Assembly (NCBI GenBank): GCA_019429105.1
Contig: JAHYJE010000008.1
Span: forward strand, 2,931-66,930
Reading direction: 5' to 3'
Length of the DNA stretch: 64,000 bases
From: Syntrophobacterales bacterium
GTDB taxonomy: Bacteria; Desulfobacterota; Syntrophia; Syntrophales; UBA5619
Numbering within the stretch: position 1 is the first letter of the stretch; every line of letters begins with the position of its first letter. Of the stretch, positions 21,386-51,482 are shown one piece after another. The notes beneath the pieces were generated by a model that saw only the letters and a program-made list of their open reading frames with translations, had not been told where the DNA came from and ran no database searches. Position numbers and translations under genes: made by a program.

Positions 21386-22840
21386 ATGAAAAAAAAGATT
21401 ATTTTGGGTCTTTCCATCCTTGCCCTGATGTTTTTATTCGGCGGGCTCTACATCTTCAGGACCACGGAAGCGATCAGCTACGATCTGCATCGCATTACCC
21501 GGATGTACCAAACGATGGTTCTTAGGAATAACCTCCTTTTGAGCATCAAGAAAAACCAGGAAAAGATCATTCTCCGGGGCAAATGCTTGGTGCCGGAGAA
21601 TTTGTCGGGTGCGGCCGGCATGGTGGAAATTGTCGAGAGGTGCGTCCTCTGTCATGCCTCTACTCACACACCCACCTACGGGAAGATGATCGCTTTGAAA
21701 GAGGAAATTCTAACCTACAATGCCGCGACGCTTAATGTTTTTGCCGCCGATCCCCTCTCGCCGCTCGCAGGACAGCGGGCGGATGCGGCGCTGACCTTGG
21801 GGGATAAACTAATAGGGACAACCGAGAACATGATCAAGGTCACCAGCATCAATCTGGAGAAGCAGGAGCGGAATGTTCTTCGGAGGATAAACCAGCGAAA
21901 GTTCACCCTGTTCGTGCTGCTTACTATAGGCCCGTTTTTTGCCGTGGGGTTGGCCTTTTTCCTGATCCGCGGGCTGACCAGACCCGTCAACAGCCTGCTG
22001 GACGCCACTCGCAGGCTCAAGGGCGGAGATTTGGAACATCGAATTGAAGGACTGAAGGATGAATTTGGGGAAGTGGCCGAATCGTTTAACGAAATGGCGT
22101 CATCCCTGAAAAAGCAGATGCTTGTCATGCAGCGGACGGAGCAATTGCGGGTCTGCGGGGAGATGTCGGCGGGGCTTGCCCATGAAATCCGGAACCCTCT
22201 TGCCGGGATGAAGGTGACGATCGAGGTGTTGTTGTCGGAACTGACGCTGGAGCCGCAGGACCGCGAGGCGCTCGAAAAGGTGGTCGAGCAGATACGACAT
22301 ATCGAGCTGCTGATGAAGAATCTTCTCAATTATGCCCGGCCGGCGGCAGCCCAGCCGACCAGCGTCGCTGTCAATAAACTCCTCGAGCAGCAGGTATATT
22401 TCATTATGAAGCACCCGTCGTTCGTCTCCGGCAATCCGCGCAAGCAGATAATCAAGGAATTTGCTGAGTCCCTGCCGGAAATTATGGGCGATCCCCAGCA
22501 ACTGCAGCAGGTTTTTCTCAATCTTTTGCTGAACGCTGCCGACGCCGTCCCGGAGGGAGGAACCATAAGGATAACAACAGGGCAGGACACGCAGAAAAAG
22601 ACCGTTTCCATCGGGATCAGCAATACGGGAAAAGGCATTCCTGCCGAATTGATGGCGAGGATATTCCTGCCCTTCTTCACAACCAAGGGGAAGGGCTCCG
22701 GGACTGGTCTGGGATTGGCCGTTTCCAAACGGATTGTCGAAGAACATGGCGGCGTAATTGAGGTTCACAATAATGTTCCTGATGGGGTTACGTTCACAGT
22801 TGCCTTGCCCGTCGGAAAGCAAGTAGAGAGATCAGTATGA
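21386..22840 (+). CDS. sensor histidine kinase (2 TM, periplasmic domain with one CXXCH, HAMP, HisKA, HATPase_c)
   Basis: TM segments at about residues 5-24 and 163-185. CVLCH at residues 86-90 (nt 21641-21655). HAMP LTRPVNSLLDATRRL. H-box GLAHEIRNPL. G-boxes GTGLGLAVSKRIVEEHGG. Confidence 0.85.
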   Translation: MKKKIILGLSILALMFLFGGLYIFRTTEAISYDLHRITRMYQTMVLRNNLLLSIKKNQEKIILRGKCLVPENLSGAAGMVEIVERCVLCHASTHTPTYGKMIALKEEILTYNAATLNVFAADPLSPLAGQRADAALTLGDKLIGTTENMIKVTSINLEKQERNVLRRINQRKFTLFVLLTIGPFFAVGLAFFLIRGLTRPVNSLLDATRRLKGGDLEHRIEGLKDEFGEVAESFNEMASSLKKQMLVMQRTEQLRVCGEMSAGLAHEIRNPLAGMKVTIEVLLSELTLEPQDREALEKVVEQIRHIELLMKNLLNYARPAAAQPTSVAVNKLLEQQVYFIMKHPSFVSGNPRKQIIKEFAESLPEIMGDPQQLQQVFLNLLLNAADAVPEGGTIRITTGQDTQKKTVSIGISNTGKGIPAELMARIFLPFFTTKGKGSGTGLGLAVSKRIVEEHGGVIEVHNNVPDGVTFTVALPVGKQVERSV

Positions 22841-24276
22841 AGAACCATGGACGTATTTATCTCGTTGATGATGACGAGCTGATTCTGGCAATGCTTGCCC
22901 GAACCCTGAAACGTGAGGGCTACGAGGTGCGCACCAATGCCGGTGATGCAAAACTCGTCGAAAGCATCGTCGAGTGGTCGCCGGATGTCGTTCTGCTCGA
23001 TGTCAACCTGCCGGGGCAAAACGGCGTGGAGGCGCTTCAGGTTCTGAAAGGTGAAGCGGTTGCGATGGAAGTCATTATGCTGACTGCCGACGATTCGGCG
23101 GAGACCGCGGTGAGGGCCATGAAGATCGGCGCCTGGGATTACCTTACCAAACCGTTCAACGTCGATGAGGTCAAGATCGTCATCCGGAATGCAATGGAAA
23201 ACGTCAAGCTCAAAAAAGAGGTCGAATATCTCAGAAAAATCAGTTCATCATTTTTTGAGAACGATTTTTGGGGTTTTTCCAAGGCAAAAAAAGAGTTGAA
23301 GGCGAAGGTGGAAAGGATAGCCGAGGCGCATGTCTCCAGCATCCTGATAACCGGGGAAAGCGGCGTCGGCAAGGAGGTCATAGCGCGCAATATCCACGGA
23401 ATGATGCACGGACAGGCTATCAGCTCCGCCAGCCCCTTTATTCCAGTCAATTGCAGCGCCCTGCCGGATACCCTCCTGGAGAGCGAGCTTTTCGGCTACG
23501 AGAAGGGCGCCTTTACCGACGCCAAAAAAAGCAAGAAGGGGCTTTTTGAAGAGGCCGACGGGGGCACACTGCTGCTGGATGAACTGGGCGAGATGAAGTT
23601 GAGCCTGCAGAGCAAGCTCCTGCGCGCCCTGGAGGAGAGAGTGGTAAGAAGAATCGGCGGGCGGGAAGAGAGACCCTTCGACGTGACCGTCGTCGCCACG
23701 ACCAACAGGGATTTGTCCGGAGCGGTGGAAAAGGGCGAGTTCCGGATGGATCTCTTCTACCGTCTCAACGCCTTTGCCTTGAACGTGCCTCCCCTGCGGG
23801 ATCCGGACAGACGGGCGGATATCCTTGTTTTGGCCAACAATTTTCTTGCCTCCTTCGCGAAGGAGTACAAAAAGGGCGTTGAGGGGTTTTCTCCCGAGGC
23901 CGAGAAATTGATGCTGGCGTATGGGTGGCCGGGAAATGTCAGGGAACTCAAAAACGTCGTGCGGGGAATAGTGGTGTTTCATAACATGAAGCTCATCATG
24001 CCTGAACACCTGCCCGTGGAAATCATCGGTTGGGCATATCCCGAGACAAGCCAACGGGAAGAGAAATTCCTTTTGCCGGCGGCGGGGATCTCCCTTGATG
24101 AGGTGGAAAAAGACCTGATTGTGCAAGCGCTTGAAATGACGGCGCACAACAAGGCGAAGGCCGCCAGGCTTTTGAATATCAGTTACGATTCGTTTAGATA
24201 TCAACTCAAGAAATTCGGCTTGGACTGGGGCAGTGAAAAAGAGGCGCACCCCCGGTACATCCCCCGCGAGTTATAA
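22837..24276 (+). CDS. sigma-54-dependent response regulator (NtrC family)
   Basis: REC domain (LVDDDE...DVVLLDVNLPG), AAA+ domain (GESGVGKEVIARNIH, ESELFGYEKGAFTDA, GWPGNVRELKN), C-terminal Fis-type HTH (NKAKAARLLNISYDSFRYQLKK). 4-nt overlap with the kinase gene. Confidence 0.92.
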   Translation: MKNHGRIYLVDDDELILAMLARTLKREGYEVRTNAGDAKLVESIVEWSPDVVLLDVNLPGQNGVEALQVLKGEAVAMEVIMLTADDSAETAVRAMKIGAWDYLTKPFNVDEVKIVIRNAMENVKLKKEVEYLRKISSSFFENDFWGFSKAKKELKAKVERIAEAHVSSILITGESGVGKEVIARNIHGMMHGQAISSASPFIPVNCSALPDTLLESELFGYEKGAFTDAKKSKKGLFEEADGGTLLLDELGEMKLSLQSKLLRALEERVVRRIGGREERPFDVTVVATTNRDLSGAVEKGEFRMDLFYRLNAFALNVPPLRDPDRRADILVLANNFLASFAKEYKKGVEGFSPEAEKLMLAYGWPGNVRELKNVVRGIVVFHNMKLIMPEHLPVEIIGWAYPETSQREEKFLLPAAGISLDEVEKDLIVQALEMTAHNKAKAARLLNISYDSFRYQLKKFGLDWGSEKEAHPRYIPREL

Positions 24277-42037: not shown

Positions 42038-42148
42038 ACGCCAGAAAGAGCTAACGCAAATAATAACATGATGTTAGCTCAGTGCCATGGTCGTCTGCCC
42101 GGAATTTATTGCCGGGTAGTAATAAAAAACTCTTATGGAGGTGACGAT

Positions 42149-42592
42149 ATGTTTGAAACAGGCTTATGGAGATTTGGAGGTTTTGTGGATCCCTCCCGGG
42201 ACGTGCGGCGTCTGCGGCAGGAGATGGATCGGATTTTTTCTGACTTTGCGCAGCCGGTTTCCCGGGAATTCCCTGCGGTAAACGCCTGGATTGGCGAGGC
42301 GGATGCGGTTGTGACGGCGGAGTTGCCCGGTATCGATCCGAGCGCTGTTGAGGTCTCGGTGGTTGGCGATACGCTGACCATAAGCGGCTCGCGCGAGGCG
42401 ACGCCGCTTATGGAGGGGGAAAGCTACCACCGTCAGGAACGGGGAGTCGGCGGCTTCAGCCGCAGTTTGCAGCTCCCGTTTCATGTCGATGCGGACAAGG
42501 TTGAGGCGAAGTACGAAAAGGGGATAATCGGGATAACCCTGCCCCGTTCCGAGGCGGAAAAGCCGAGAAAAATTTTGGTCAAGAACCAATAG
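42149..42592 (+). CDS. Hsp20/alpha-crystallin small heat-shock protein
   Basis: ATG at 42149 preceded by GGAGGTG. ...AELPGIDPSAVEVSVVGDTLTISG...F.RS..LPF.VD.DKVEAKYEKGI..ITLP. Confidence 0.88.
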   Translation: MFETGLWRFGGFVDPSRDVRRLRQEMDRIFSDFAQPVSREFPAVNAWIGEADAVVTAELPGIDPSAVEVSVVGDTLTISGSREATPLMEGESYHRQERGVGGFSRSLQLPFHVDADKVEAKYEKGIIGITLPRSEAEKPRKILVKNQ

Positions 42593-42603
42593 GGGGTGAA
42601 ATT

Positions 42604-43005
42604 ATGAAGAATATTGTTGAATATGAGAAGAAACCTGTTCAGGAGGCGGCCGGGGTGGAGCGCACCCATAACCGGCGGGTTTATGTCCCGAAGGTTGATA
42701 TAATCGATACGAAAGAGTCCGTTATCCTGTATGCGGATATGCCCGGGGTCGATGAAGGTTCGGTGGACGTGACGATCGACAAGAACGTTCTCAATATTTC
42801 AGGCGTTGTCAACCTTCCTGAATTCAAGGGAATGAGCATTGCCTACGCCGAGTACGAGGTCGGCGATTATGATCGCTCCTTTACAATCTCCGACGATATT
42901 GACCGTGAAAAGGTGGAGGCGCTGGTAAAAAACGGGGTTCTAAAACTCGTTCTGCACAAGGCGCCGGAGGCCGCCGTCAAGAAGATAACCGTCCGGGCTG
43001 AATAG
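42604..43005 (+). CDS. Hsp20/alpha-crystallin small heat-shock protein
   Basis: ...YADMPGVDEGSVDVTIDKNVLNISG...YDRSFTISDDIDREKVEALVKNGVLKLVLHK. Confidence 0.88.
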   Translation: MKNIVEYEKKPVQEAAGVERTHNRRVYVPKVDIIDTKESVILYADMPGVDEGSVDVTIDKNVLNISGVVNLPEFKGMSIAYAEYEVGDYDRSFTISDDIDREKVEALVKNGVLKLVLHKAPEAAVKKITVRAE

Positions 43006-43015
43006 CCGGGCGCGC

Positions 43016-43049
43016 AAAAAAGCCGGAGGGAAAACCACCCGGCTTTTTT
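43016..43049. terminator. bidirectional rho-independent terminator
   Basis: AAAAAAGCCGG-agggaaaaccac-CCGGCTTTTTT, between convergent genes (hsp20 stop 43005, lipoprotein stop 43103). Confidence 0.7.
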
Positions 43050-43102: not shown

Positions 43103-43504
43103 TCACTTGCCATTCACCCTGAATTTTGTGACGAAATATACCTTGTCAAAGGTGCGATTCAAGGCTTTGCTCTTGAATTGTTCTACGAACGGCGCCTCGG
43201 AATATTCGATTTCGTCGCCGACATTGATCTTGGCCTGCTTGGCGCCCACCCAGATTTTTTTGCCATTTTCCACCACCTGCATAAAGGTGTAAGCGCCCCC
43301 GTTCAGGGTGGCTACAACCTTGCCTTTATGGTCTGACGCCGCCGGTTGGGACTGAGGCGCAGCGGCAGCGGTATTTTGCGCCGGTGCAGGCGCCGCGGCC
43401 TGCGGGACGGCAGTCGCAGGCGCTTCTTCCTGAGGCTTGTCTTTGCATCCCGCTGCGGCGATTGCCAATACTGCCGCTGCTGTCAACAACTGTCTTTTCA
43501 TCAT
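43103..43504 (-). CDS. small lipoprotein, unknown function (last gene of the cytochrome unit)
   Basis: Lipobox AIAAAGC, Ala/Pro/Gln-rich linker, then a roughly 75-aa globular C-terminus. No family recognised. Confidence 0.55.
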   Translation of the reverse strand: MMKRQLLTAAAVLAIAAAGCKDKPQEEAPATAVPQAAAPAPAQNTAAAAPQSQPAASDHKGKVVATLNGGAYTFMQVVENGKKIWVGAKQAKINVGDEIEYSEAPFVEQFKSKALNRTFDKVYFVTKFRVNGK

Positions 43505-43578
43505 TTCTCCTTTGGTACGCTGTATAATTTATAAACGCTTCATGCTGGCCGTCGGCGATTATACCCTCATAAAATCAA

Positions 43579-44316
43579 TCAGTGGCAGGCGCTGCAACCG
43601 GAACTGCCGGCGATTATCTGTGAGCCATGACACGCTAAGACACTGCAAGATGAAATGCCGTTGGCTGCAACGTATCCTTCATGCAGGCTGGAATTGTCCG
43701 ACCATTCGAGCGGATGTTTGGATGTCGGCCCGCCGAGATGACAGTCGCTGCAGGAACGACCGCTTTGAAAAACCCCGTCCAGATTTGCGCCGTGGCAACT
43801 GGCAGTCGCGCAGCCGGCAGTGCCGTTCGTCTTGGCGTAGTTCCCGTGCGAGGTGCCGGGCAAGGTCGTCCACTCAGGTGGATGGTAGGCATTCGGCCCG
43901 CCGAGATGACAGGCGCTGCAGGAGGGGCCGCTTTGGAAAACCCCTGCCAGGTTTGTGCCGTGGCAACTGGCGGTCGCGCAGCCGGCCGTGCCGTTTGCCT
44001 TGGCGTAGCTGCCGTGGAGGGCATAGGCATAGGCTCCCCACTGGGTGGGATGGTAAGAAGCATGGTTGCCGATGTGGCAGGTGGTGCAGGATGTCTGGGC
44101 AATACCGCCCTGGTAATCCGCGCCATGACACTCGGCGCATGTTTCCATGTTAGCCTTGGCCGCCGTCTTATGGCCGGTGGGCAGCCAGCCGGTAGGATGC
44201 CCCGTAGAAGAATCAAAACTGGACTGGGAACTGGAGCTCCCGCATCCCGCCAGCGCGAAGACGGAAATAAACAGCAGCAAGGCAAAGGTCAAAGAGGTTT
44301 TTGTTATCTGTGACAT
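43579..44316 (-). CDS. multihaem c-type cytochrome lipoprotein with CX4CH...CXXCH repeats
   Basis: ATG at 44314-44316 preceded by GAGAGGTG. Lipobox FALAGC. Five CXXCH (CAECH, CTTCH, CSACH, CSDCH, CSACH) and three CX4CH (CATASCH twice, CSVLACH). Two near-identical modules of about 54 aa. Confidence 0.85.
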   Translation of the reverse strand: MSQITKTSLTFALLLFISVFALAGCGSSSSQSSFDSSTGHPTGWLPTGHKTAAKANMETCAECHGADYQGGIAQTSCTTCHIGNHASYHPTQWGAYAYALHGSYAKANGTAGCATASCHGTNLAGVFQSGPSCSACHLGGPNAYHPPEWTTLPGTSHGNYAKTNGTAGCATASCHGANLDGVFQSGRSCSDCHLGGPTSKHPLEWSDNSSLHEGYVAANGISSCSVLACHGSQIIAGSSGCSACH

Positions 44317-44741
44317 GTCTTGCACCTCTCATTGTTTTGTCTTCCGTGGCATTTCGCGCAGGAAGCCGGGTTGATCCTGCCTTCGATGCGGTGGCGACTC
44401 AGGTAATCGCCGCGGTGGGGCAGGTTACGTTCAGGAGAAGTCTTGTATTTATCGCTTGGTTTGAGCTCCTCCTTGTAGGCATGACAATCTGCACAGAAGG
44501 ATTCACGGTGGCAAGAGGAACATACAGCCCTCTGTCCCCCGGCGTAGTACTTGTGCTTGCGGAAAAAATCATCGGCCTTGTGATTCAAGGCGCCAAACTG
44601 ATTCTCGTGGCACTCGCCGCAGTTGACAAGCCCCTTGACTTCCTGCGGGTGCTTCCTGGCGAGACTGGCGCCGTTGGCACAGGCATAAACAACCAATCCC
44701 ATTATAATTATTCCTGCATACGCAAACAGTTTTTTCTTCAC
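44304..44741 (-). CDS. pentahaem c-type cytochrome (signal peptide / possible lipobox)
   Basis: 145 aa. CGECH, CSSCH, CADCH, CAKCH, CKTCH. Its start overlaps the barrel gene stop (ATGA). Confidence 0.85.
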   Translation of the reverse strand: MKKKLFAYAGIIIMGLVVYACANGASLARKHPQEVKGLVNCGECHENQFGALNHKADDFFRKHKYYAGGQRAVCSSCHRESFCADCHAYKEELKPSDKYKTSPERNLPHRGDYLSRHRIEGRINPASCAKCHGRQNNERCKTCHR

Positions 44742-46039
44742 TTGCCCCCCCCTCCTGCACCGAACGTCTTGTCGAAAGAATAGGTGAGCTTTATCAGCCC
44801 CATTAAATTATGATCGAAATCAATGCTTTTTGAATAGTCAACAGCGACGGCCAATTGCAATTGCTCGGAAATTCCATACCCCACCCCCACCGAGGCACAA
44901 TAGGTGTTTTTAATGCCGCTGATGGCGCTGTCGTACTTAACATCGAAAAAGTCGGCCATTAGAGATGCTTTCCCTAATGTTTTTGAGGCAAACAGGCGAT
45001 ACTCATCATAGGTCAGCCTGGCAGTTTCCCCGGCCATACGATGGAGGGAAAAGCCGACCATAAATGACTCGGAAGCTGTAAAGGTTGCTTTGCCGCCGAA
45101 GTATTTTGCCTCCCCGGCAATTTTATAATCGTAGTTTCTGTAGTCCACAACCAGCGCCAAACCCTCTATGGGGCTCACCTCAATGCCGCCTCCCAGGGAA
45201 AACTGTCGCTCATCGGGGTCAATGATACCTGTTGTCAGGCTGAAGACGCTTGTCGTCATCTGCTGGAAATAGTCCCGGTAATTTATACCTGCCAGGTCGG
45301 CGCTAATTCTCAGATTACCCAAGGGATTGAAGGTAAGCGCATAGGCATGCTCCATCCAGCCGGAGGTAACAGAATTGTAGGAAGAGCGGCCGGCTAAGTC
45401 AAGTTTCGGAAGCGGATGAAGCCAAAGGTCAAGGCCGGCTTCCTCCCTGATCCGGTTGCCGTCGTAATTCGTTTGCAGGATGCTTAATCCGAGCGAATAG
45501 TACTTGGGAACGCTGTGGGAAAAACGACCGCCGTAAGTCACATCGCCGCCCTTGAAATTAGGTTCGGTGACAACAGGCGCCCCTACATAGGCGGCGGCGC
45601 CGAATCCGCCGGCAAAATCACTGTGCAGATAAAGACCGTCGAGTCTTTCAGCAGCCACGCCTTCCGCGACAAACTGCCTGCCGGCGGTAAACTGGAGGTT
45701 GTTATTATTGCCCTGGTAACTTACATTGCCATACTGAAAAGCTCCCTCTGCGCGGCCTCCGGGTCTTCTATCACGGGTGTCCAGACGTCCCCAACCTCCG
45801 AAATCGCCGGACAGGGCGCCTTCTTTCAAATCGTTTTCAATTCCAAGGCTCAAATACTCGTAGATAGGCAAGAGCTTGCGGTCGTCCGCGGCCCGTTCCA
45901 TGCGCAAAATTGTCTGGGATTCCCCGCTTACGGAAACGGCTTGCCCGACATTCGGCAGGAGAAGAAAGAGCAATAAGGAAACGCCGATGCACAAGGCAAA
46001 AATGATTGTACATCTTTTCTTTTCATCAGGGATCATCAA
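44738..46039 (-). CDS. outer-membrane beta-barrel (porin-like) protein
   Basis: 433 aa. Signal peptide, many alternating-hydrophobic strands rich in Y/G/aromatic girdle residues. Penultimate motif LIKLTYSF, followed by a short G-rich tail. AAGGAGG lies upstream. Confidence 0.7.
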   Translation of the reverse strand: MMIPDEKKRCTIIFALCIGVSLLLFLLLPNVGQAVSVSGESQTILRMERAADDRKLLPIYEYLSLGIENDLKEGALSGDFGGWGRLDTRDRRPGGRAEGAFQYGNVSYQGNNNNLQFTAGRQFVAEGVAAERLDGLYLHSDFAGGFGAAAYVGAPVVTEPNFKGGDVTYGGRFSHSVPKYYSLGLSILQTNYDGNRIREEAGLDLWLHPLPKLDLAGRSSYNSVTSGWMEHAYALTFNPLGNLRISADLAGINYRDYFQQMTTSVFSLTTGIIDPDERQFSLGGGIEVSPIEGLALVVDYRNYDYKIAGEAKYFGGKATFTASESFMVGFSLHRMAGETARLTYDEYRLFASKTLGKASLMADFFDVKYDSAISGIKNTYCASVGVGYGISEQLQLAVAVDYSKSIDFDHNLMGLIKLTYSFDKTFGAGGGGK

Positions 46040-46313
46040 GACATAGCCTCCTTGATTAGAATTAGCCGACCGGGACGCCGGCAGTCTGTTTATTTCTCAA
46101 TCCCGCTATACGGTCTAAATGCCCTTGCGCAATTATCTTCTGCTGTAAAAACGCAGACAACGATCGCGAGTTTGCTAAATGCATTAATTACCAAGCAAGC
46201 GATATTCTGTTGTTGCCAGCTTTTGACTATGTTCCTCCGCAGTTCTTTGCGTGGCGTTTGCGGACTATAGATAATGAAAATAAATAAAGCAAGTTCTTTG
46301 AACGCCAAAACAT

Positions 46314-46343
46314 AAAAAAGGCGGGTCGCAACCCACCTTTTTT
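46314..46343 (-). terminator. rho-independent terminator after the decahaem cytochrome gene
   Basis: Minus strand: GGUGGGU-ugcg-ACCCGCC followed by TTTTTTAT, with an A-tract on the other side. Confidence 0.75.
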
Positions 46344-46412
46344 ATTGTATTGCCTTTGTTGAGCCGCCTTCATTGGGAATAGAGGTGGGCCGAAGCCCAC
46401 CTCCTGACCCTG

Positions 46413-48938
46413 CTATTTGAAGGCTGACATAATTTTGGTAATTACCGTGTCAAATACCGTGCTGTCGGTTGCGACCGTACGATAACCATTGTCCTTGGTG
46501 TGCTGGCTGAAAGATACCAGACCGCCTAGGTCATCTCTGTTGATCATATTGGTTCTGTGGCAAGAACCGCAGGCCCGGGCCGCAGGACCGGTTACATAGC
46601 TCGGTACGCCGGTGATGCTTCTGGTTCGGCCTTTAAGGGTGTCTCTTGAGGCCGAAAGTGTGCCGCCCAGTGATTTGGCTTGATCCGGCACATCAAACGT
46701 GCCCGCAGCGTGGCAGGATTTGCAGTTCTTCGTCGTGAACGTGGGATAGGAAAAGAACGTTTTGGCTCCCAGGTCGCCGGTTTCCAGTTTGTATTCCATC
46801 AGTGTGAACGGATCCGCGAAGTCGATATTATGAATATCGAACGGCTGGTTCGAATGGATCGCGTGTACGTAGGAATCGATGGATCTTCCCTGCATTTCCA
46901 AATGGGAACCGCCGGGGCGCGTGGTATGACACAACCGGCAACCCACGACGCCTGCATTCCCGTACTGGGCTGAATGGAAGGTGATTCCCAGCGCTCCGTG
47001 GCAGTTTTCACAGCCTGTTGCCACATTGACGATGGGGCTGGCGGAAGCGATAAACGCATTTGTAGCAATATTGAAGGTCTTCGAGGCGGTTGCCACGGGA
47101 ACGTTATAATCCGCTGTTACCGGTGACGTCGCTTCGAGGTTGGTGCTATCATCAACATTGCCGACAACTTTTGTCAGCTTCGGAAGGACTGCAATTTCCA
47201 TCCGCTTTACTGTGCCGTCGGTGATCAGGCTGGACCAATTAGCCAAACTTGCCTTGACTTCCCATTTGCCGGCAGCCGCGGAGATTGGCGTGAAACGAGC
47301 ATTTGTCGTACCCCAGTCAAATTCCAGATTTCTGGCGGTATCGATGGTTCTGCCGTGGGCATCAACGATGAAATCTTTGGTGTTGTAGCCATACAACCCC
47401 ACGATGACCTTGGGCACAATGTCCGTTACGGCCAGGGTGGTGAGGCTCCCGGGATCACTTTTGGCTGCGCTGAATTTGATCGTCAGATCCGTGCCGCTCA
47501 GCGTGGCGCTGTCGACGGTTACCGTGAAGATGTCCTTCCACTTTTTGGCTACCCCGGCAGTGACACCGGCATAGATCTTCTTGTCGTAGCCGGAGTGAAT
47601 GGAGCTGAATGTCTTAGCAATGCCGGTAGCGCTGTGGCACGTATTGCACACTGCCGTAGTTGAGGTGATATTATGACCTGCCAGTGTTGGCAACGAAAGT
47701 TTGGAATCGCCCTTGAACGGGTGGCAGCTCTTGCATGTTTCAATCTTGAACTGGGCATCCGCCGTAATGGTGGCGGTTTTACCTTCGTGGCAGACGGTGC
47801 AGTTCGACATGGACTGCGGATAGAGGAATTCCATGGCATGAGGCATGTGCACGTCATTCATGAGCGTCGTTTTATAGCCGTACTCGGTTTTCTGGGCGGC
47901 CGTCAAGGCTGTCCCCGCGTTGTATGAAGCGGCCAAGGTAGGATCGTTCACGGCCAGGGGCCATTCGAAATGGCCGCCCGTGCCATCGTCCTTATGGCAG
48001 GGCTTACAGGTATAAAATTCCGTGGCTGAGGTTATCCCGATTGCTTTCGTGGCGCCCTGGATATTGCCATGCTTGCCGTAGGGTATGGTATGGCATTTTT
48101 CACAGCCGGCGACATTGGCGGCAGATGTGTAACCGACAGTGCCTATTTTCAGTACCGCCGCGTAGGGGTATTTCACCTGTTTGACGCGTCCACCCGGAAC
48201 AGTGCCAAGCAACTCGTCGTAGCCATACACAGTGATCGTGCCATTGCTAGCCGCTAAATTGCCCAGGTCGATGGCGTTGTAAGTGCTCGTGCAAGTACCG
48301 GCGCCATCATCGGTGAGCGTACCTTTCATAGTTGTACGTCCTCCTGCTGCCGCCGTAACAGGATTGGCCGGGAAAGTCGCACCGTCATAATCTGACCAGT
48401 AAATATTCAGGTTGTCTGCATCTTTACACGAAAAGTCTGACCCCAATTTGGTCATTTTGAAAGTGACTGTGGTTGTGCCTGCGGCGTAGGCGTAGGTTAT
48501 GTTTGACACCTGGATGCCCGCCGCATCAATCTTGTTTAGCTGATCATAGTACGCCTGATGGTCAGTGCCGGCGGTTTTATGGCAAACAGCGCATGATTCA
48601 GGGCTGACCGAAGCTGCAACGGACACTGCGGCATTGGCGGAAGTCTGCAGTGCCGACCATTGGGCTTCAGTCCCGCTATAACTCAGGGCTGCTGCACTTG
48701 CGTAAGATAACGACAGTAACTGCGCTTGAGTGCCGGTGAAGCCGGCAGCTTGCGCGGTTGCATATTGGCTGGCGGATGCGGCTAACGATGCGGCGTCAAC
48801 TGGAGCCGCAGGGCCAGCGGGACCGGCAGGCCCGGCAGGCCCGGCGGCACCCGCACTGCCATCGCTGCCGCTGCAGCCAGACAGGGCAAAGACGCTTAAA
48901 ACGATAAATAAAACAAATAACGGAAAGCTCTTTTTCAT
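46413..48938 (-). CDS. decahaem c-type cytochrome lipoprotein (OmcA/MtrC-like layout)
   Basis: 841 aa. AAGGAGG RBS. Lipobox ALSGC followed by a (GPA)n linker. Ten CXXCH (CAVCH, CEKCH, CKPCH, CTVCH, CKSCH, CNTCH, CENCH, CRLCH, CKSCH, CGSCH), separated by two long haem-free beta-rich segments. Confidence 0.85.
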   Translation of the reverse strand: MKKSFPLFVLFIVLSVFALSGCSGSDGSAGAAGPAGPAGPAGPAAPVDAASLAASASQYATAQAAGFTGTQAQLLSLSYASAAALSYSGTEAQWSALQTSANAAVSVAASVSPESCAVCHKTAGTDHQAYYDQLNKIDAAGIQVSNITYAYAAGTTTVTFKMTKLGSDFSCKDADNLNIYWSDYDGATFPANPVTAAAGGRTTMKGTLTDDGAGTCTSTYNAIDLGNLAASNGTITVYGYDELLGTVPGGRVKQVKYPYAAVLKIGTVGYTSAANVAGCEKCHTIPYGKHGNIQGATKAIGITSATEFYTCKPCHKDDGTGGHFEWPLAVNDPTLAASYNAGTALTAAQKTEYGYKTTLMNDVHMPHAMEFLYPQSMSNCTVCHEGKTATITADAQFKIETCKSCHPFKGDSKLSLPTLAGHNITSTTAVCNTCHSATGIAKTFSSIHSGYDKKIYAGVTAGVAKKWKDIFTVTVDSATLSGTDLTIKFSAAKSDPGSLTTLAVTDIVPKVIVGLYGYNTKDFIVDAHGRTIDTARNLEFDWGTTNARFTPISAAAGKWEVKASLANWSSLITDGTVKRMEIAVLPKLTKVVGNVDDSTNLEATSPVTADYNVPVATASKTFNIATNAFIASASPIVNVATGCENCHGALGITFHSAQYGNAGVVGCRLCHTTRPGGSHLEMQGRSIDSYVHAIHSNQPFDIHNIDFADPFTLMEYKLETGDLGAKTFFSYPTFTTKNCKSCHAAGTFDVPDQAKSLGGTLSASRDTLKGRTRSITGVPSYVTGPAARACGSCHRTNMINRDDLGGLVSFSQHTKDNGYRTVATDSTVFDTVITKIMSAFK

Positions 48939-49030: not shown

Positions 49031-49047
49031 AAGCAATGAACATGCCA
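49031..49047 (-). promoter_or_regulatory. sigma-54 (-24/-12) promoter of the decahaem cytochrome gene
   Basis: Minus strand TGGCATGTTCATTGCTT. One mismatch to TGGCAC-N5-TTGCW, with GG and GC 10 nt apart. About 90 nt upstream of the ATG at 48938. Confidence 0.7.
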
Positions 49048-49355: not shown

Positions 49356-49895
49356 TTAATCATTATCGGGACGGCGCTGGTTCCCAAATCTCCTTAATCC
49401 TCGCAAAGGTATGGGCACAGATTCATTTTCCGAGCTTTGCAGTTTGGGAGTTGATGCCCCGGTGCTGGAAACAGTTGGTGGTTGTCCCGCGGATGATGCT
49501 TGAGCCGGAAGGCGGGCGCCTGATTTCTGGGAGGAGAGGGCTGTGTCAAAAACGGTAACCACCTTCATTTTTTCATCATACATCAGCAACTTATTTTCAA
49601 TGCCGATGCTATTCAAGATGGATCTTAACCCCTCGTCCATCGTAGCCTTGTGCAGGGCTTGCGTGACTGGTTTGTCCAGCCATTTGTCGGGGGCCTTGAT
49701 CTTCCATCTGGTTGTTTTGGCGATTTTCCCCAGTACGCTGCGCAGCGGTTCATTACTGAAGTCCATGGTAATTGTGCCCGGAACCGCGGCTTTCTCCGCT
49801 CCCCAGCCGGGGGCTATTGCAAAAATGGCCGCCAGCAATCCAAAACAAACCAGAGTAAAAAATTTTTTCATTATTGCGATTGACTGGTTGAACAT
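49356..49895 (-). CDS. secreted hypothetical protein (possible STN-like N-domain, Ser/Pro/Gln-rich tail)
   Basis: Signal peptide KKFFTLVCFGLLAAIFAIAPGWGA. ITMDFSNEPLRSVLGKIAKTTRWKI resembles secretin/TonB short N-domains. The start is uncertain (49895 or 49871). Confidence 0.45.
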   Translation of the reverse strand: MFNQSIAIMKKFFTLVCFGLLAAIFAIAPGWGAEKAAVPGTITMDFSNEPLRSVLGKIAKTTRWKIKAPDKWLDKPVTQALHKATMDEGLRSILNSIGIENKLLMYDEKMKVVTVFDTALSSQKSGARLPAQASSAGQPPTVSSTGASTPKLQSSENESVPIPLRGLRRFGNQRRPDND

Positions 49896-49916
49896 AAGTT
49901 TACTTTTCTGCTGAAA

Positions 49917-50621
49917 TTATTGTTTCGTAACGATCTCGACCTTTGCCCTTTTGTTGAGCTCGTCGACCCAGGCTGCCCGGGTCATTCCCTTTTCCTGCGT
50001 TCCCTTGGCGACGAGCTTGGCAAGCAGAATATCCTTTTCCATCCGCTTCTCGAAAGCGGGCGGCGTCATACCGTGACTTTTCAAAAAGGCCTCGAAATCC
50101 TTGTCGGAAAGTTTGAGGTTTTTCTTGACGGCGCTGATTTTGTCGGCGATTTCCTGAGGGGACACGGTGATTTTTTCCTTGGCCGCCTCGGTCACCAGTA
50201 TTTTATCATGGATTATTTTATTCAGAATCTGCCTTCTCAAATCCGCCGCGGCCGCTTTGCCCGCGGGGGTGGAATCAGACTGGCCGTTTATACCGGTCGT
50301 CTTTTTATAGAGGTCTAATTTCTTATCCACCTCCGCGATGGTGATCTTTTCCCCATTGACGATGGCGGCCGTGTTCCAGCCGCCTTTCAGCGGGTTCGGC
50401 AGCAGGCCGGTAAAAATCAGCAGGGCCGCGCCTGACAAAACCACCAGCACTATGGCTATGATCGCATAGAGCTTTTTCCTGCCCGGTTCCTTCTGCTCCC
50501 GGGAGGTCGCCGTTATTGAATCTTTCACTTCGTTTTCGTTCACTTCCTTCCCGCATGCGCCGCAGATCGCCAATCCGTTTGCCAGGGCGCCTCCGCAGTG
50601 GGGACATTGCTGATTTTCCAT
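49917..50621 (-). CDS. membrane-anchored SurA-N-terminal-domain-like chaperone with N-terminal zinc ribbon
   Basis: CPHCGG...CGACG, one TM (LYAIIAIVLVVLSGAALLIF), then VNGEKITIAEVDKKL...ILNKIIHDKILVTEAAKEKITVS..E..., as in SurA/PpiD N-domains. GGGAGG RBS. Confidence 0.6.
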   Translation of the reverse strand: MENQQCPHCGGALANGLAICGACGKEVNENEVKDSITATSREQKEPGRKKLYAIIAIVLVVLSGAALLIFTGLLPNPLKGGWNTAAIVNGEKITIAEVDKKLDLYKKTTGINGQSDSTPAGKAAAADLRRQILNKIIHDKILVTEAAKEKITVSPQEIADKISAVKKNLKLSDKDFEAFLKSHGMTPPAFEKRMEKDILLAKLVAKGTQEKGMTRAAWVDELNKRAKVEIVTKQ

Positions 50622-50859: not shown

Positions 50860-51213
50860 TTATAGTGACAGGCTGTTTTTCAGCGCCATGTCCACCTTTT
50901 CCATGAGCTCGTCGGGGAGAGTCGCGAGCCTGGCTCCGGTCAACCTGCTTTTATCGAGGGTGTGGATCTGCGAGAGATTGACGATGGAATTCTTTTTCAG
51001 GCCGGAATCAGTGCCGATAACTACACAGATGGGGTAAGTGGCTTTTTTTTCGGAATATTCGGTGATGACGGCAACGATGGTCGTGGGTGAGTACTGATTG
51101 CCGACATCGTTCTGAACCATCAACACCGGGCGGGTTTTCCCTGTTTCGCTTCCCACCACTGGATCGAGCGCTGCGTAATAGACATCTCCTCTTTTGACCT
51201 GCACGGAAGTCAT
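50860..51213 (-). CDS. mazF: MazF/PemK-family type II toxin (endoribonuclease)
   Basis: VKRGDVYYAALDPVVGSETGKTRPVLMVQND..., IVAVIT, NSIVNLSQIHTLDKSRL. Confidence 0.88.
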   Translation of the reverse strand: MTSVQVKRGDVYYAALDPVVGSETGKTRPVLMVQNDVGNQYSPTTIVAVITEYSEKKATYPICVVIGTDSGLKKNSIVNLSQIHTLDKSRLTGARLATLPDELMEKVDMALKNSLSL

Positions 51214-51482
51214 GGGGCAGCCTCGGGGAGATTCTCGGCATCAGAGAACTTGAAATCCTCACAGATGCGGATGTTTTCCTCGGCTAGCTCCTGATAGGCG
51301 GTTTTCATTTGCTGATTGAGGTTCTGCCTTTCGATCTGCATTAATTTTTCCTCGATGGACTCCCGCACGAGGGAGGAAACATTTTTCCCCTCACGGGCAG
51401 AGGCTTGGAAAAGCCTGACCTTGATCTCCGTCGGGAGTTGAATATTGATTCGCGTTTTTTCCTGCTGTGCCGTTGATAGCAT
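51210..51482 (-). CDS. ribbon-helix-helix (CopG-type) antitoxin paired with MazF
   Basis: 90 aa. RINIQLPTEIKVRLFQASAREGKNVSSLVRESIEEKL. 4-nt overlap with mazF. Confidence 0.75.
   Translation of the reverse strand: MLSTAQQEKTRINIQLPTEIKVRLFQASAREGKNVSSLVRESIEEKLMQIERQNLNQQMKTAYQELAEENIRICEDFKFSDAENLPEAAP

Follow-up and report, generated by a model that had tools for sequence, protein, structure and literature searches.

A cluster of five minus-strand genes, here called A to E (Table 1), likely encodes an electron conduit across the outer membrane in an uncultured Syntrophales bacterium. The cluster lies in a 64,000-nucleotide stretch of contig JAHYJE010000008.1 (assembly GCA_019429105.1, positions 2,931 to 66,930; the whole stretch is referred to below as the window), and the predicted conduit would be of the porin-cytochrome (Pcc/Ext) type, in the subtype of ExtEFG of Geobacter sulfurreducens and GM18_3461-3463 of Geobacter sp. 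M18. An initial annotation, made from the sequence, had seen in these genes a porin and multihaem cytochromes with the logic of an outer membrane conduit, and gene content and conservation agree with that prediction. It had also considered the composition unfamiliar; the same layout has in fact been published for Geobacter sp. M18 (PMC4245776), with ExtEFG and ExtBCD as described relatives (PMC6148476). By its composition, the locus belongs to a subtype that has been described before and implicated by genetics, and what is new about it lies mainly in the host lineage. A literature search for such clusters in Syntrophales found no report.

Gene content of the cluster

An open reading frame (ORF) check of the window recovered all five genes and reproduced the coordinates and haem-motif counts that had been annotated. 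Gene A carries 10 CXXCH motifs (at residue 116; at 279, 311, 380, 402, and 431; and at 643, 667, 739, and 790), a layout of 1+5+4. C has 5 CXXCH motifs, D has 5 together with 3 CX4CH motifs, and B and E have none. A, C, and D were the only ORFs in the window with 2 or more CXXCH motifs and are mutually adjacent, so this clustering of haem motifs is not due to chance; a chance origin was also rejected since the motifs and distal histidines are invariant across the C family. A PROSITE-type lipobox pattern fitted A (LSGC, Cys22), D (LAGC), and E (AAGC), in keeping with their annotation as lipoproteins, and also C (VYAC, Cys21). B did not match this pattern and has a plain signal peptide. None of the five proteins had a significant sequence match in the PDB, and an Rfam scan of the window gave no match.

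The stop codon of B overlaps the start codon of C, as had been annotated, although the overlap reads GTGA and not ATGA, the start codon of C being GTG. The most likely start codon of D is ATG 44316, which is preceded by a Shine-Dalgarno sequence (GAGAGG), yields a protein of 245 amino acids (aa), and upholds the annotated 13-nt overlap with C; the mechanical ORF reaches GTG 44325 (248 aa). The GTGA and 13-nt overlaps point to translational coupling of B, C, and D.

Conservation and origin of the cluster

With the barrel alignment we retrieved 71 genome loci, among which there were 56 complete B-C-D triads and 35 fully flanked loci. Most were from Geomonas, Geobacter, and Desulfuromonadaceae, and others came from Nitrospirota, Deferribacterales, and Syntrophus (at least 5 lineages). 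B, C, and D were adjacent and in the same order in essentially every complete locus, so that the conservation of gene order in relatives, proposed in the initial annotation as a check, extends to 56 complete triads. C has 5 CXXCH motifs in all of them (56/56). Mean pairwise identity in the triads was highest for C (64%), followed by B (51%) and D (42%), and the identity matrices of B and C were strongly correlated (r = 0.84), compared to r = 0.57 for B and D and r = 0.47 for C and D.

A decahaem cytochrome that fitted a profile made with A and six PF22113-matching relatives was found within approximately 6 kb in 21 of the 35 fully flanked loci, and most of the remaining flanked loci had another 8- to 10-haem cytochrome (700 to 960 aa). 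The MtrC-like decahaem gene is located either directly upstream of the barrel gene or downstream of D, after a lipoprotein with fn3/Ig repeats. MtrC-like decahaems are consistently linked with the B-C-D module, which contradicts the statement in a 2024 survey of Desulfuromonadia cytochromes that MtrC-like cytochromes are not associated with porin complexes (PMC11492766). Many Geobacteraceae loci encode, between D and the decahaem, a 500- to 750-aa lipoprotein with beta-sheet repeats of the fn3, Ig, or RGI-lyase type (for example, L005:2722-4872 and L030:11413-12924, and similarly in L015, L016, L021, L027, L033, and L060), which is lacking from the window.

B has the same sequence (100% identity) as MBW6485345.1, a protein of a "Syntrophobacterales bacterium" metagenome-assembled genome (MAG), and the 90% cluster of this protein holds three more Syntrophales MAG proteins. 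The best-matching locus, L001 from an uncultured Syntrophus, was 85% identical in B, 94% in C, 80% in D, 77% in A, and 72% in E. In a metagenomic locus with 59% barrel identity (L072), the cluster is inverted and has the same neighbours (carboxyltransferase, epimerase, SurA_N protein, and ClpS/ClpA), which suggests that the cluster was inherited vertically within the lineage. Another metagenomic locus, L073 (54% barrel identity), has the barrel-pentahaem pair without an adjacent D gene; 3.4 kb away on the opposite strand, it encodes a 689-aa cytochrome (L073:13099-15168) with MtrC/MtrF and GSu_C4xC__C2xCH domains (the PF09698 match being weak), as though D-like and A-like features had been combined in a single protein.

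The barrel and its pentahaem partner

An AlphaFold2 (AF2) model of B, based on a 60-sequence alignment, had 22 strands with very short loops and no plug (mean predicted local distance difference test score [pLDDT], 84.8; predicted template modelling score [pTM], 0.74). By standard barrel geometry, an estimate not taken from the model itself, 22 strands correspond to a C-alpha diameter near 40 Å, so that B, as modelled, is compact in sequence yet wide. It had been annotated as a small barrel, which a 22-strand model does not support, and the strand count also led us to reject the fold of OmpA, of FadL, or of any ordinary small porin. The motif LIKLTYSF, annotated as lying near the end of B, was found 11 residues ahead of the C terminus. 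B had no match at E ≤ 1 in Pfam or NCBIfam, including TIGR03509 and MtrB_PioB, and a relationship to MtrB was rejected, given the lack of a family match and the wrong strand count (22 versus 26). In Foldseek searches with the model, the matches listed were all to barrels of a generic kind (ushers, OccK/OprD porins, AlgE, and TonB receptors), the best query TM-scores, 0.55 to 0.57, being to the TonB-dependent receptor PfeA; no MtrB chain was among the best 50 matches and no cytochrome porin stood out. The family of B comprises at least 699 representative clusters at E ≤ 1e-3 in a barrel superfamily search. Its alignment contains many invariant polar or charged residues, including a GWMEH motif (W228, H231) and R334-M335, which are candidates for lumen-lining residues in contact with the cytochrome.

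In the C family, of which at least 610 representative clusters were found, all 5 CXXCH motifs and 10 histidines are invariant in 50 sequences, which fits five bis-histidine haems. The lipobox cysteine, in the context L-[YVF]-A-C-A-N-T, is kept in nearly all homologues, and C is therefore a probable lipoprotein; the view of C as a soluble periplasmic protein was not borne out. The 90% cluster of P0176, a protein 68% identical to C, holds ACH40368.1, a 144-aa "lipoprotein cytochrome c" of Citrifermentans bemidjiense Bem. This is probably Gbem_3373, which would fit the accession arithmetic.

A conduit of the same type could also be wired by an unlinked periplasmic multihaem cytochrome, similar to ExtA or OmaB, with C and D both on the outside as in ExtBCD. 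Lipoboxes on all cytochromes of the window, and a window in which no periplasmic cytochrome is encoded, would suit this arrangement, and so would the placement of ExtC and ExtF on the outer face and the occurrence of extBCD loci with extA elsewhere in the genome (PMC6148476). We nevertheless consider it unlikely: C is the most conserved protein of the triad and co-varies with the barrel, as expected of a buried partner; no non-lipoprotein multihaem gene was consistently linked across the 56 triads; and the lipid-anchored cysteine of C is followed by the first conserved motif after only about 10 residues, whereas A and D have long linkers.

Still less probable, in our judgement, is that no wire crosses the membrane at all and that B is a solute channel, the lipoprotein cytochromes being periplasm-facing reductases (compare ExtHIJKL in selenite and tellurite reduction). 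A plug-free 22-strand barrel with such short loops would be an unusually wide open pore, and neither the tight coupling of B and C nor the consistently linked MtrC/OmcA-type cytochrome fits a solute channel, although clusters without a role in metal respiration are present in the Pcc/Ext literature (ExtI, for example), lipoproteins can face the periplasm, and the topology here is inferred.

The lipoprotein cytochromes A and D

A matched PF22113 (domains II/IV of MtrC/MtrF) in two stretches (E = 2e-22, 79.9 bits; cutoff, 30) and TIGR03507 (OmcA/MtrC) over residues 154 to 826 (E = 3.5e-37), the latter with 128 bits, below the cutoff of 209. Its annotation as OmcA/MtrC-like was thus supported by one match above threshold and one long match below the curated cutoff. 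The match to TIGR03508 (MtrA/DmsE-type) was weak and partial (E = 0.0076). A departs from the 5+5 CXXCH arrangement of the OmcA/MtrC family: at the tenth haem, A has lost the CXXCH, now degenerated into SFSQH, and it has gained a CXXCH at residue 116, so the total is still ten. The 1+5+4 layout is shared with a relative in L038 (L038:26-2206), whereas Geobacteraceae relatives keep the MtrC-type 5+5. To our knowledge, the MtrC/OmcA family is known only as cell surface terminal reductases.

D consists of four dihaem modules of about 56 aa with the pattern CX4CH...CXXCH, giving 8 haem sites; these motifs, the LAGC lipobox, and the 13-nt overlap agree with its annotation as a CX4CH-repeat lipoprotein within a translationally coupled unit. 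Despite the same motif pattern, D did not match PF09698 (GSu_C4xC__C2xCH) at E ≤ 1. Two copies of a 150-nt segment within the gene are 168 nt apart, the length of one dihaem module, and this duplication, by its sequence, is recent and still visible in the DNA. Homologues of D in the 56 triads have 4 to 15 haem motifs; together with the in-gene duplication, this range suggests that gain and loss of modules in the D family is ongoing, as it seems.

Comparison with known conduits

In the Pcc definition, the porin has 18 to 22 strands and the partner cytochrome has 5 to 14 haems (PMC4245776); porin and partner are conserved and co-evolving, and the surface cytochrome is variable (PMC4245776, PMC11389400). 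The lipoprotein cytochrome often has atypical CX3-15CH motifs (PMC4245776). B has 22 predicted strands, a signal peptide, and adjoining cytochromes, C has 5 haem motifs and co-varies with B (r = 0.84), and D is an LAGC lipoprotein (5 CXXCH and 3 CX4CH motifs) whose homologues range from 4 to 15 motifs, which places all three within this definition.

The closest published layout is that of Geobacter sp. M18, for which Shi, Fredrickson, and Zachara (2014) described pcc clusters with a porin, a 5-haem cytochrome, a CX3-4CH-rich outer membrane cytochrome, and an associated 10-haem protein (GM18_3461-3463 and GM18_3467-3469, with GM18_3465 as the 10-haem protein; PMC4245776). The window has the same three parts in the same order, with a 10-haem neighbour, and the duplicated arrangement of M18 matches the Geomonas loci L030 and L050. 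It differs in several respects. D has 5 CXXCH and 3 CX4CH motifs (8 sites), compared to one CX2CH and five CX3-4CH motifs (6 sites) in M18, and the decahaem gene of the window lies upstream of the barrel gene, with its own terminator and a 1+5+4 layout, whereas the M18 10-haem protein is 5+5. The window lacks the fn3/Ig-repeat lipoprotein between D and the decahaem, has the extra lipoprotein E, and belongs to a Syntrophales host. The M18 5-haem protein was called periplasmic by Shi et al., whereas C has a conserved lipobox, and the M18 10-haem protein was called "porin-like," whereas the 10-haem proteins at the retrieved loci match MtrC/MtrF domains, the likeness to M18 being one by description. 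The 2014 paper assigned 21 transmembrane motifs to GM18_3465, its "porin-like" 10-haem cytochrome; the equivalents in Geomonas loci (L030, L050, L010, and others) match PF22113 (E = 1e-42 to 1e-46), and the protein is probably of the MtrC/OmcA type, its beta-rich domains having been taken for membrane strands.

ExtEFG (GSU2726-2724) and ExtBCD likewise start with a barrel that is followed by a pentahaem lipoprotein (ExtF or ExtC; Jimenez Otero et al. 2018, PMC6148476), and in ExtEFG a multihaem protein with atypical motifs comes next (GSU2724). ExtC and ExtF are 49% identical, and in some extE clusters the barrel gene is preceded by a gene for one more lipoprotein, a decahaem (PMC6148476). Listed ExtF homologues are Gbem_3373, GM21_0873, and GM18_3462/3468, of which Gbem_3373 and GM18_3462/3468 are 43 to 46% identical to ExtF (PMC6148476); they occur in the Geomonas/Citrifermentans clade, in which the C family is also found. 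ExtG, however, has 12 haems and is described as periplasmic, whereas D is an 8-haem lipoprotein, and extEFG is part of a hydrogenase-linked transcription unit, which the cluster in the window is not. The published ExtE homologues with at least 40% identity exclude Geomonas/Citrifermentans genomes, and a scan based on three near-invariant motifs of the B family retrieved neither G. sulfurreducens nor G. uraniireducens, so B is at best a distant relative of ExtE. Cluster look-ups of distant B relatives (NCBI-sourced matches and ten representatives without the family motifs) returned only MAG "hypothetical proteins" and no ExtE, ExtB, or OmbB.

OmbB-OmaB-OmcB of G. sulfurreducens, the canonical Pcc complex and of the same Pcc class (PMC4245776), shares the order of barrel, partner cytochrome, and lipoprotein cytochrome, with a barrel of approximately 20 strands, but OmaB is a soluble periplasmic protein with 8 haems and OmcB has 12 haems; the systems were likened by description. 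Phylogenetically, the Pcc proteins of Geobacter form two groups, I and V, and OmbB belongs to the former (PMC4245776). With MtrCAB of Shewanella the window shares the overall logic and, in A, a homologue of MtrC/OmcA. The locus is not MtrCAB, since it lacks both a barrel of the MtrB/PioB family (no match; 22 versus 26 strands) and MtrA, no MtrA/DmsE-type periplasmic decahaem being encoded in the 64-kb window; the haem layout of A (1+5+4 versus 5+5) differs as well.

Proposed route of electrons

In the reading that we favour, B would be an empty 22-strand outer membrane barrel and C (about 125 mature residues, lipid anchored, with five bis-histidine haems) its obligate partner, made in a fixed ratio with it through translational coupling. 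C would most likely sit in or at the barrel lumen and carry electrons across the membrane; five haems would span approximately 40 Å, about the height of the barrel. D, with 8 haems, and the decahaem A, with its long flexible linker, would be variable, exposed lipoproteins that pass electrons on to an acceptor, possibly Fe(III) or Mn(IV) minerals, humics, electrodes, or a partner cell. The periplasmic donors would be encoded elsewhere.

Several points weigh against this reading. Neither the cluster nor the 64-kb window encodes a soluble periplasmic multihaem cytochrome, so that the canonical trio of a periplasmic cytochrome, a barrel, and a surface lipoprotein is not literally matched. The barrel has no specific structural relative among the solved cytochrome porins, and AF2 modelling of C on its own gave a poor result (pLDDT, 60; pTM, 0.40). 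Members of the subtype are biochemically and structurally uncharacterized, and the link to ExtEFG and M18 comes from published homologue lists and one C. bemidjiense cluster member, the probable Gbem_3373. The identity of the inside partner is also disputed: the 5-haem protein was regarded as periplasmic by Shi et al. in 2014 (PMC4245776), whereas Jimenez Otero et al. in 2018 described ExtF as an outer membrane lipoprotein and ExtG as periplasmic (PMC6148476). The main uncertainty is thus which protein crosses the barrel, as all cytochromes in the window are predicted lipoproteins and the source papers disagree.

The direction of electron flow was considered separately. Porin-cytochrome conduits are reversible in principle and direction is unreadable from sequence alone, so the conduit might, in the manner of MtoAB/PioAB, run inwards, with Fe(II), a cathode, or a partner cell as the source of electrons; the occurrence of the family in Nitrospirota is compatible with this. 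Such a reversal seems highly unlikely to us here. The Syntrophales are syntrophic oxidizers that are obliged to dispose of electrons, most members of the family are found in metal-reducing Geobacterales and Desulfuromonadales, and the related extEFG contributes to metal-oxide reduction, its deletion in G. sulfurreducens lacking omcBC worsening this process.

Much more tentatively, we propose an all-lipoprotein conduit in which a lipid-anchored pentahaem of about 125 residues would both plug and wire a 22-strand barrel, as the smallest trans-outer-membrane haem wire known. Through such cytochromes, obligate syntrophs of the Syntrophales might be able to reduce Fe(III) or to transfer electrons directly to another species, with the MtrC-like decahaem, its tenth haem site moved to the N terminus, as the contact to the partner. 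The Syntrophales are regarded as hydrogen- or formate-donating syntrophs, and direct interspecies electron transfer by Syntrophus aciditrophicus via conductive pili was reportedly described by Walker and colleagues in 2020.

If the favoured reading is right, a vertically inherited Pcc/Ext conduit with an MtrC-like terminal cytochrome would give members of the Syntrophales a cytochrome route to minerals, electrodes, or methanogens, which would bear on carbon flow in methanogenic and in iron-rich sediments. The barrel-pentahaem pair is widespread (about 700 barrel and 610 pentahaem representative clusters) and lacks biochemical and structural characterization. The locus by itself adds a host lineage and the corrections given here, and no new kind of system.

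Transcription signals

Table 1. Coordinates of the cluster genes, flanking genes, and sequence elements in the window
Feature	Coordinates	Strand	Basis
A: OmcA/MtrC-like decahaem lipoprotein, 841 aa, LSGC, GPA-repeat linker	46413..48938	-	Motifs, PF22113, TIGR03507
B: outer membrane beta-barrel, 433 aa, signal peptide, 22 predicted strands	44738..46039	-	AF2 model
C: pentahaem cytochrome, probable lipoprotein, 145 aa, GTG start	44304..44741	-	Motifs, conserved lipobox
D: lipoprotein cytochrome, 245 aa, LAGC, 8 haem sites	43579..44316	-	Motifs, four dihaem modules
E: lipoprotein, 133 aa, AAGC, Ala/Pro-rich linker, C-terminal domain of about 75 aa of unknown function	43103..43504	-	ORF, lipobox
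Tandem duplication inside D, two 150-nt copies (43699-43848, 43867-44016)	43699..44016	-	83% identity
Unknown secreted protein, 179 aa	49356..49895	-	Upstream of A, kept in L001
Zinc-ribbon and SurA_N chaperone-like protein, 234 aa	49917..50621	-	SurA_N_3, E = 1.4e-23; in L001 and L072
Two hairpins 3' of A (46382-46404, 46314-46343), the second with flanking A and U runs	46314..46404	-	Fold
Sigma-54-like -24/-12 element, TGGCAT-N5-TTGCT, candidate promoter	49032..49047	-	Motif match
Hairpin 3' of E, flanked by A and T runs, common to the convergent Hsp20 gene	43016..43049		Read from sequence

Folding of the region downstream of A revealed two hairpins that a simple terminator scan had missed. 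With a minimum free energy (MFE) of -58.2 kcal/mol (z = -5.5), they resemble an intrinsic terminator, and the annotated strong terminator after A was confirmed as two stable hairpins, the second followed by a U run. A transcript of B, C, D, and E likely ends at the hairpin after E, and E is probably cotranscribed with B, C, and D; no hairpin was seen in the 74-nt gap between D and E.

A had been annotated as transcribed from a sigma-54 promoter. A sigma-54-like element, TGGCATGTTCATTGCT, is indeed present at 49047-49032 on the minus strand, approximately 93 nt upstream of the start codon of A; it is the sole match in the window with at most 1 mismatch and is retained in the Syntrophus relative L001 as TGGCATATTCGTTGCA, with two spacer changes. 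However, at up to 2 mismatches the window is no richer in matches than shuffled sequence, and L001 is a close relative, so the element is statistically not compelling and is regarded as a candidate promoter only. At 21386-24276, 25 kb from the motif, the window encodes a pair made up of a histidine kinase with a HAMP domain and a sigma-54 activator of the NtrC type (Sigma54_activat, E = 2e-61); any link of this pair to the motif is hypothetical.

Gene E and flanking genes

E, which had been annotated as closing the unit, is not a conserved member of it. Searches of Pfam, NCBIfam, and the PDB with E gave no match, and among the loci the gene was present only in L001, apart from a distant copy in the opposite orientation in L003. 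A role as core subunit was rejected given its absence from all but the closest relative; judged by this distribution, E is lineage specific.

The two genes at 49356-50621 may be accessory and encode dedicated folding helpers, and their membership of the cluster is putative. A PpiC-type rotamase is encoded directly upstream of the barrel in ten loci (L072:7130-7984, L002, L003, L028, L029, L039, L051, L057, L061, and L064); the window has, instead, the zinc-ribbon and SurA_N gene and the gene for the 179-aa secreted protein upstream of A. Two Hsp20 genes (42068-43005) converge on E and share its terminator hairpin. Just past the other end of the cluster, at 50860-51482, are a MazF/PemK toxin gene and an overlapping small upstream gene, which has no Pfam match and probably encodes the antitoxin.

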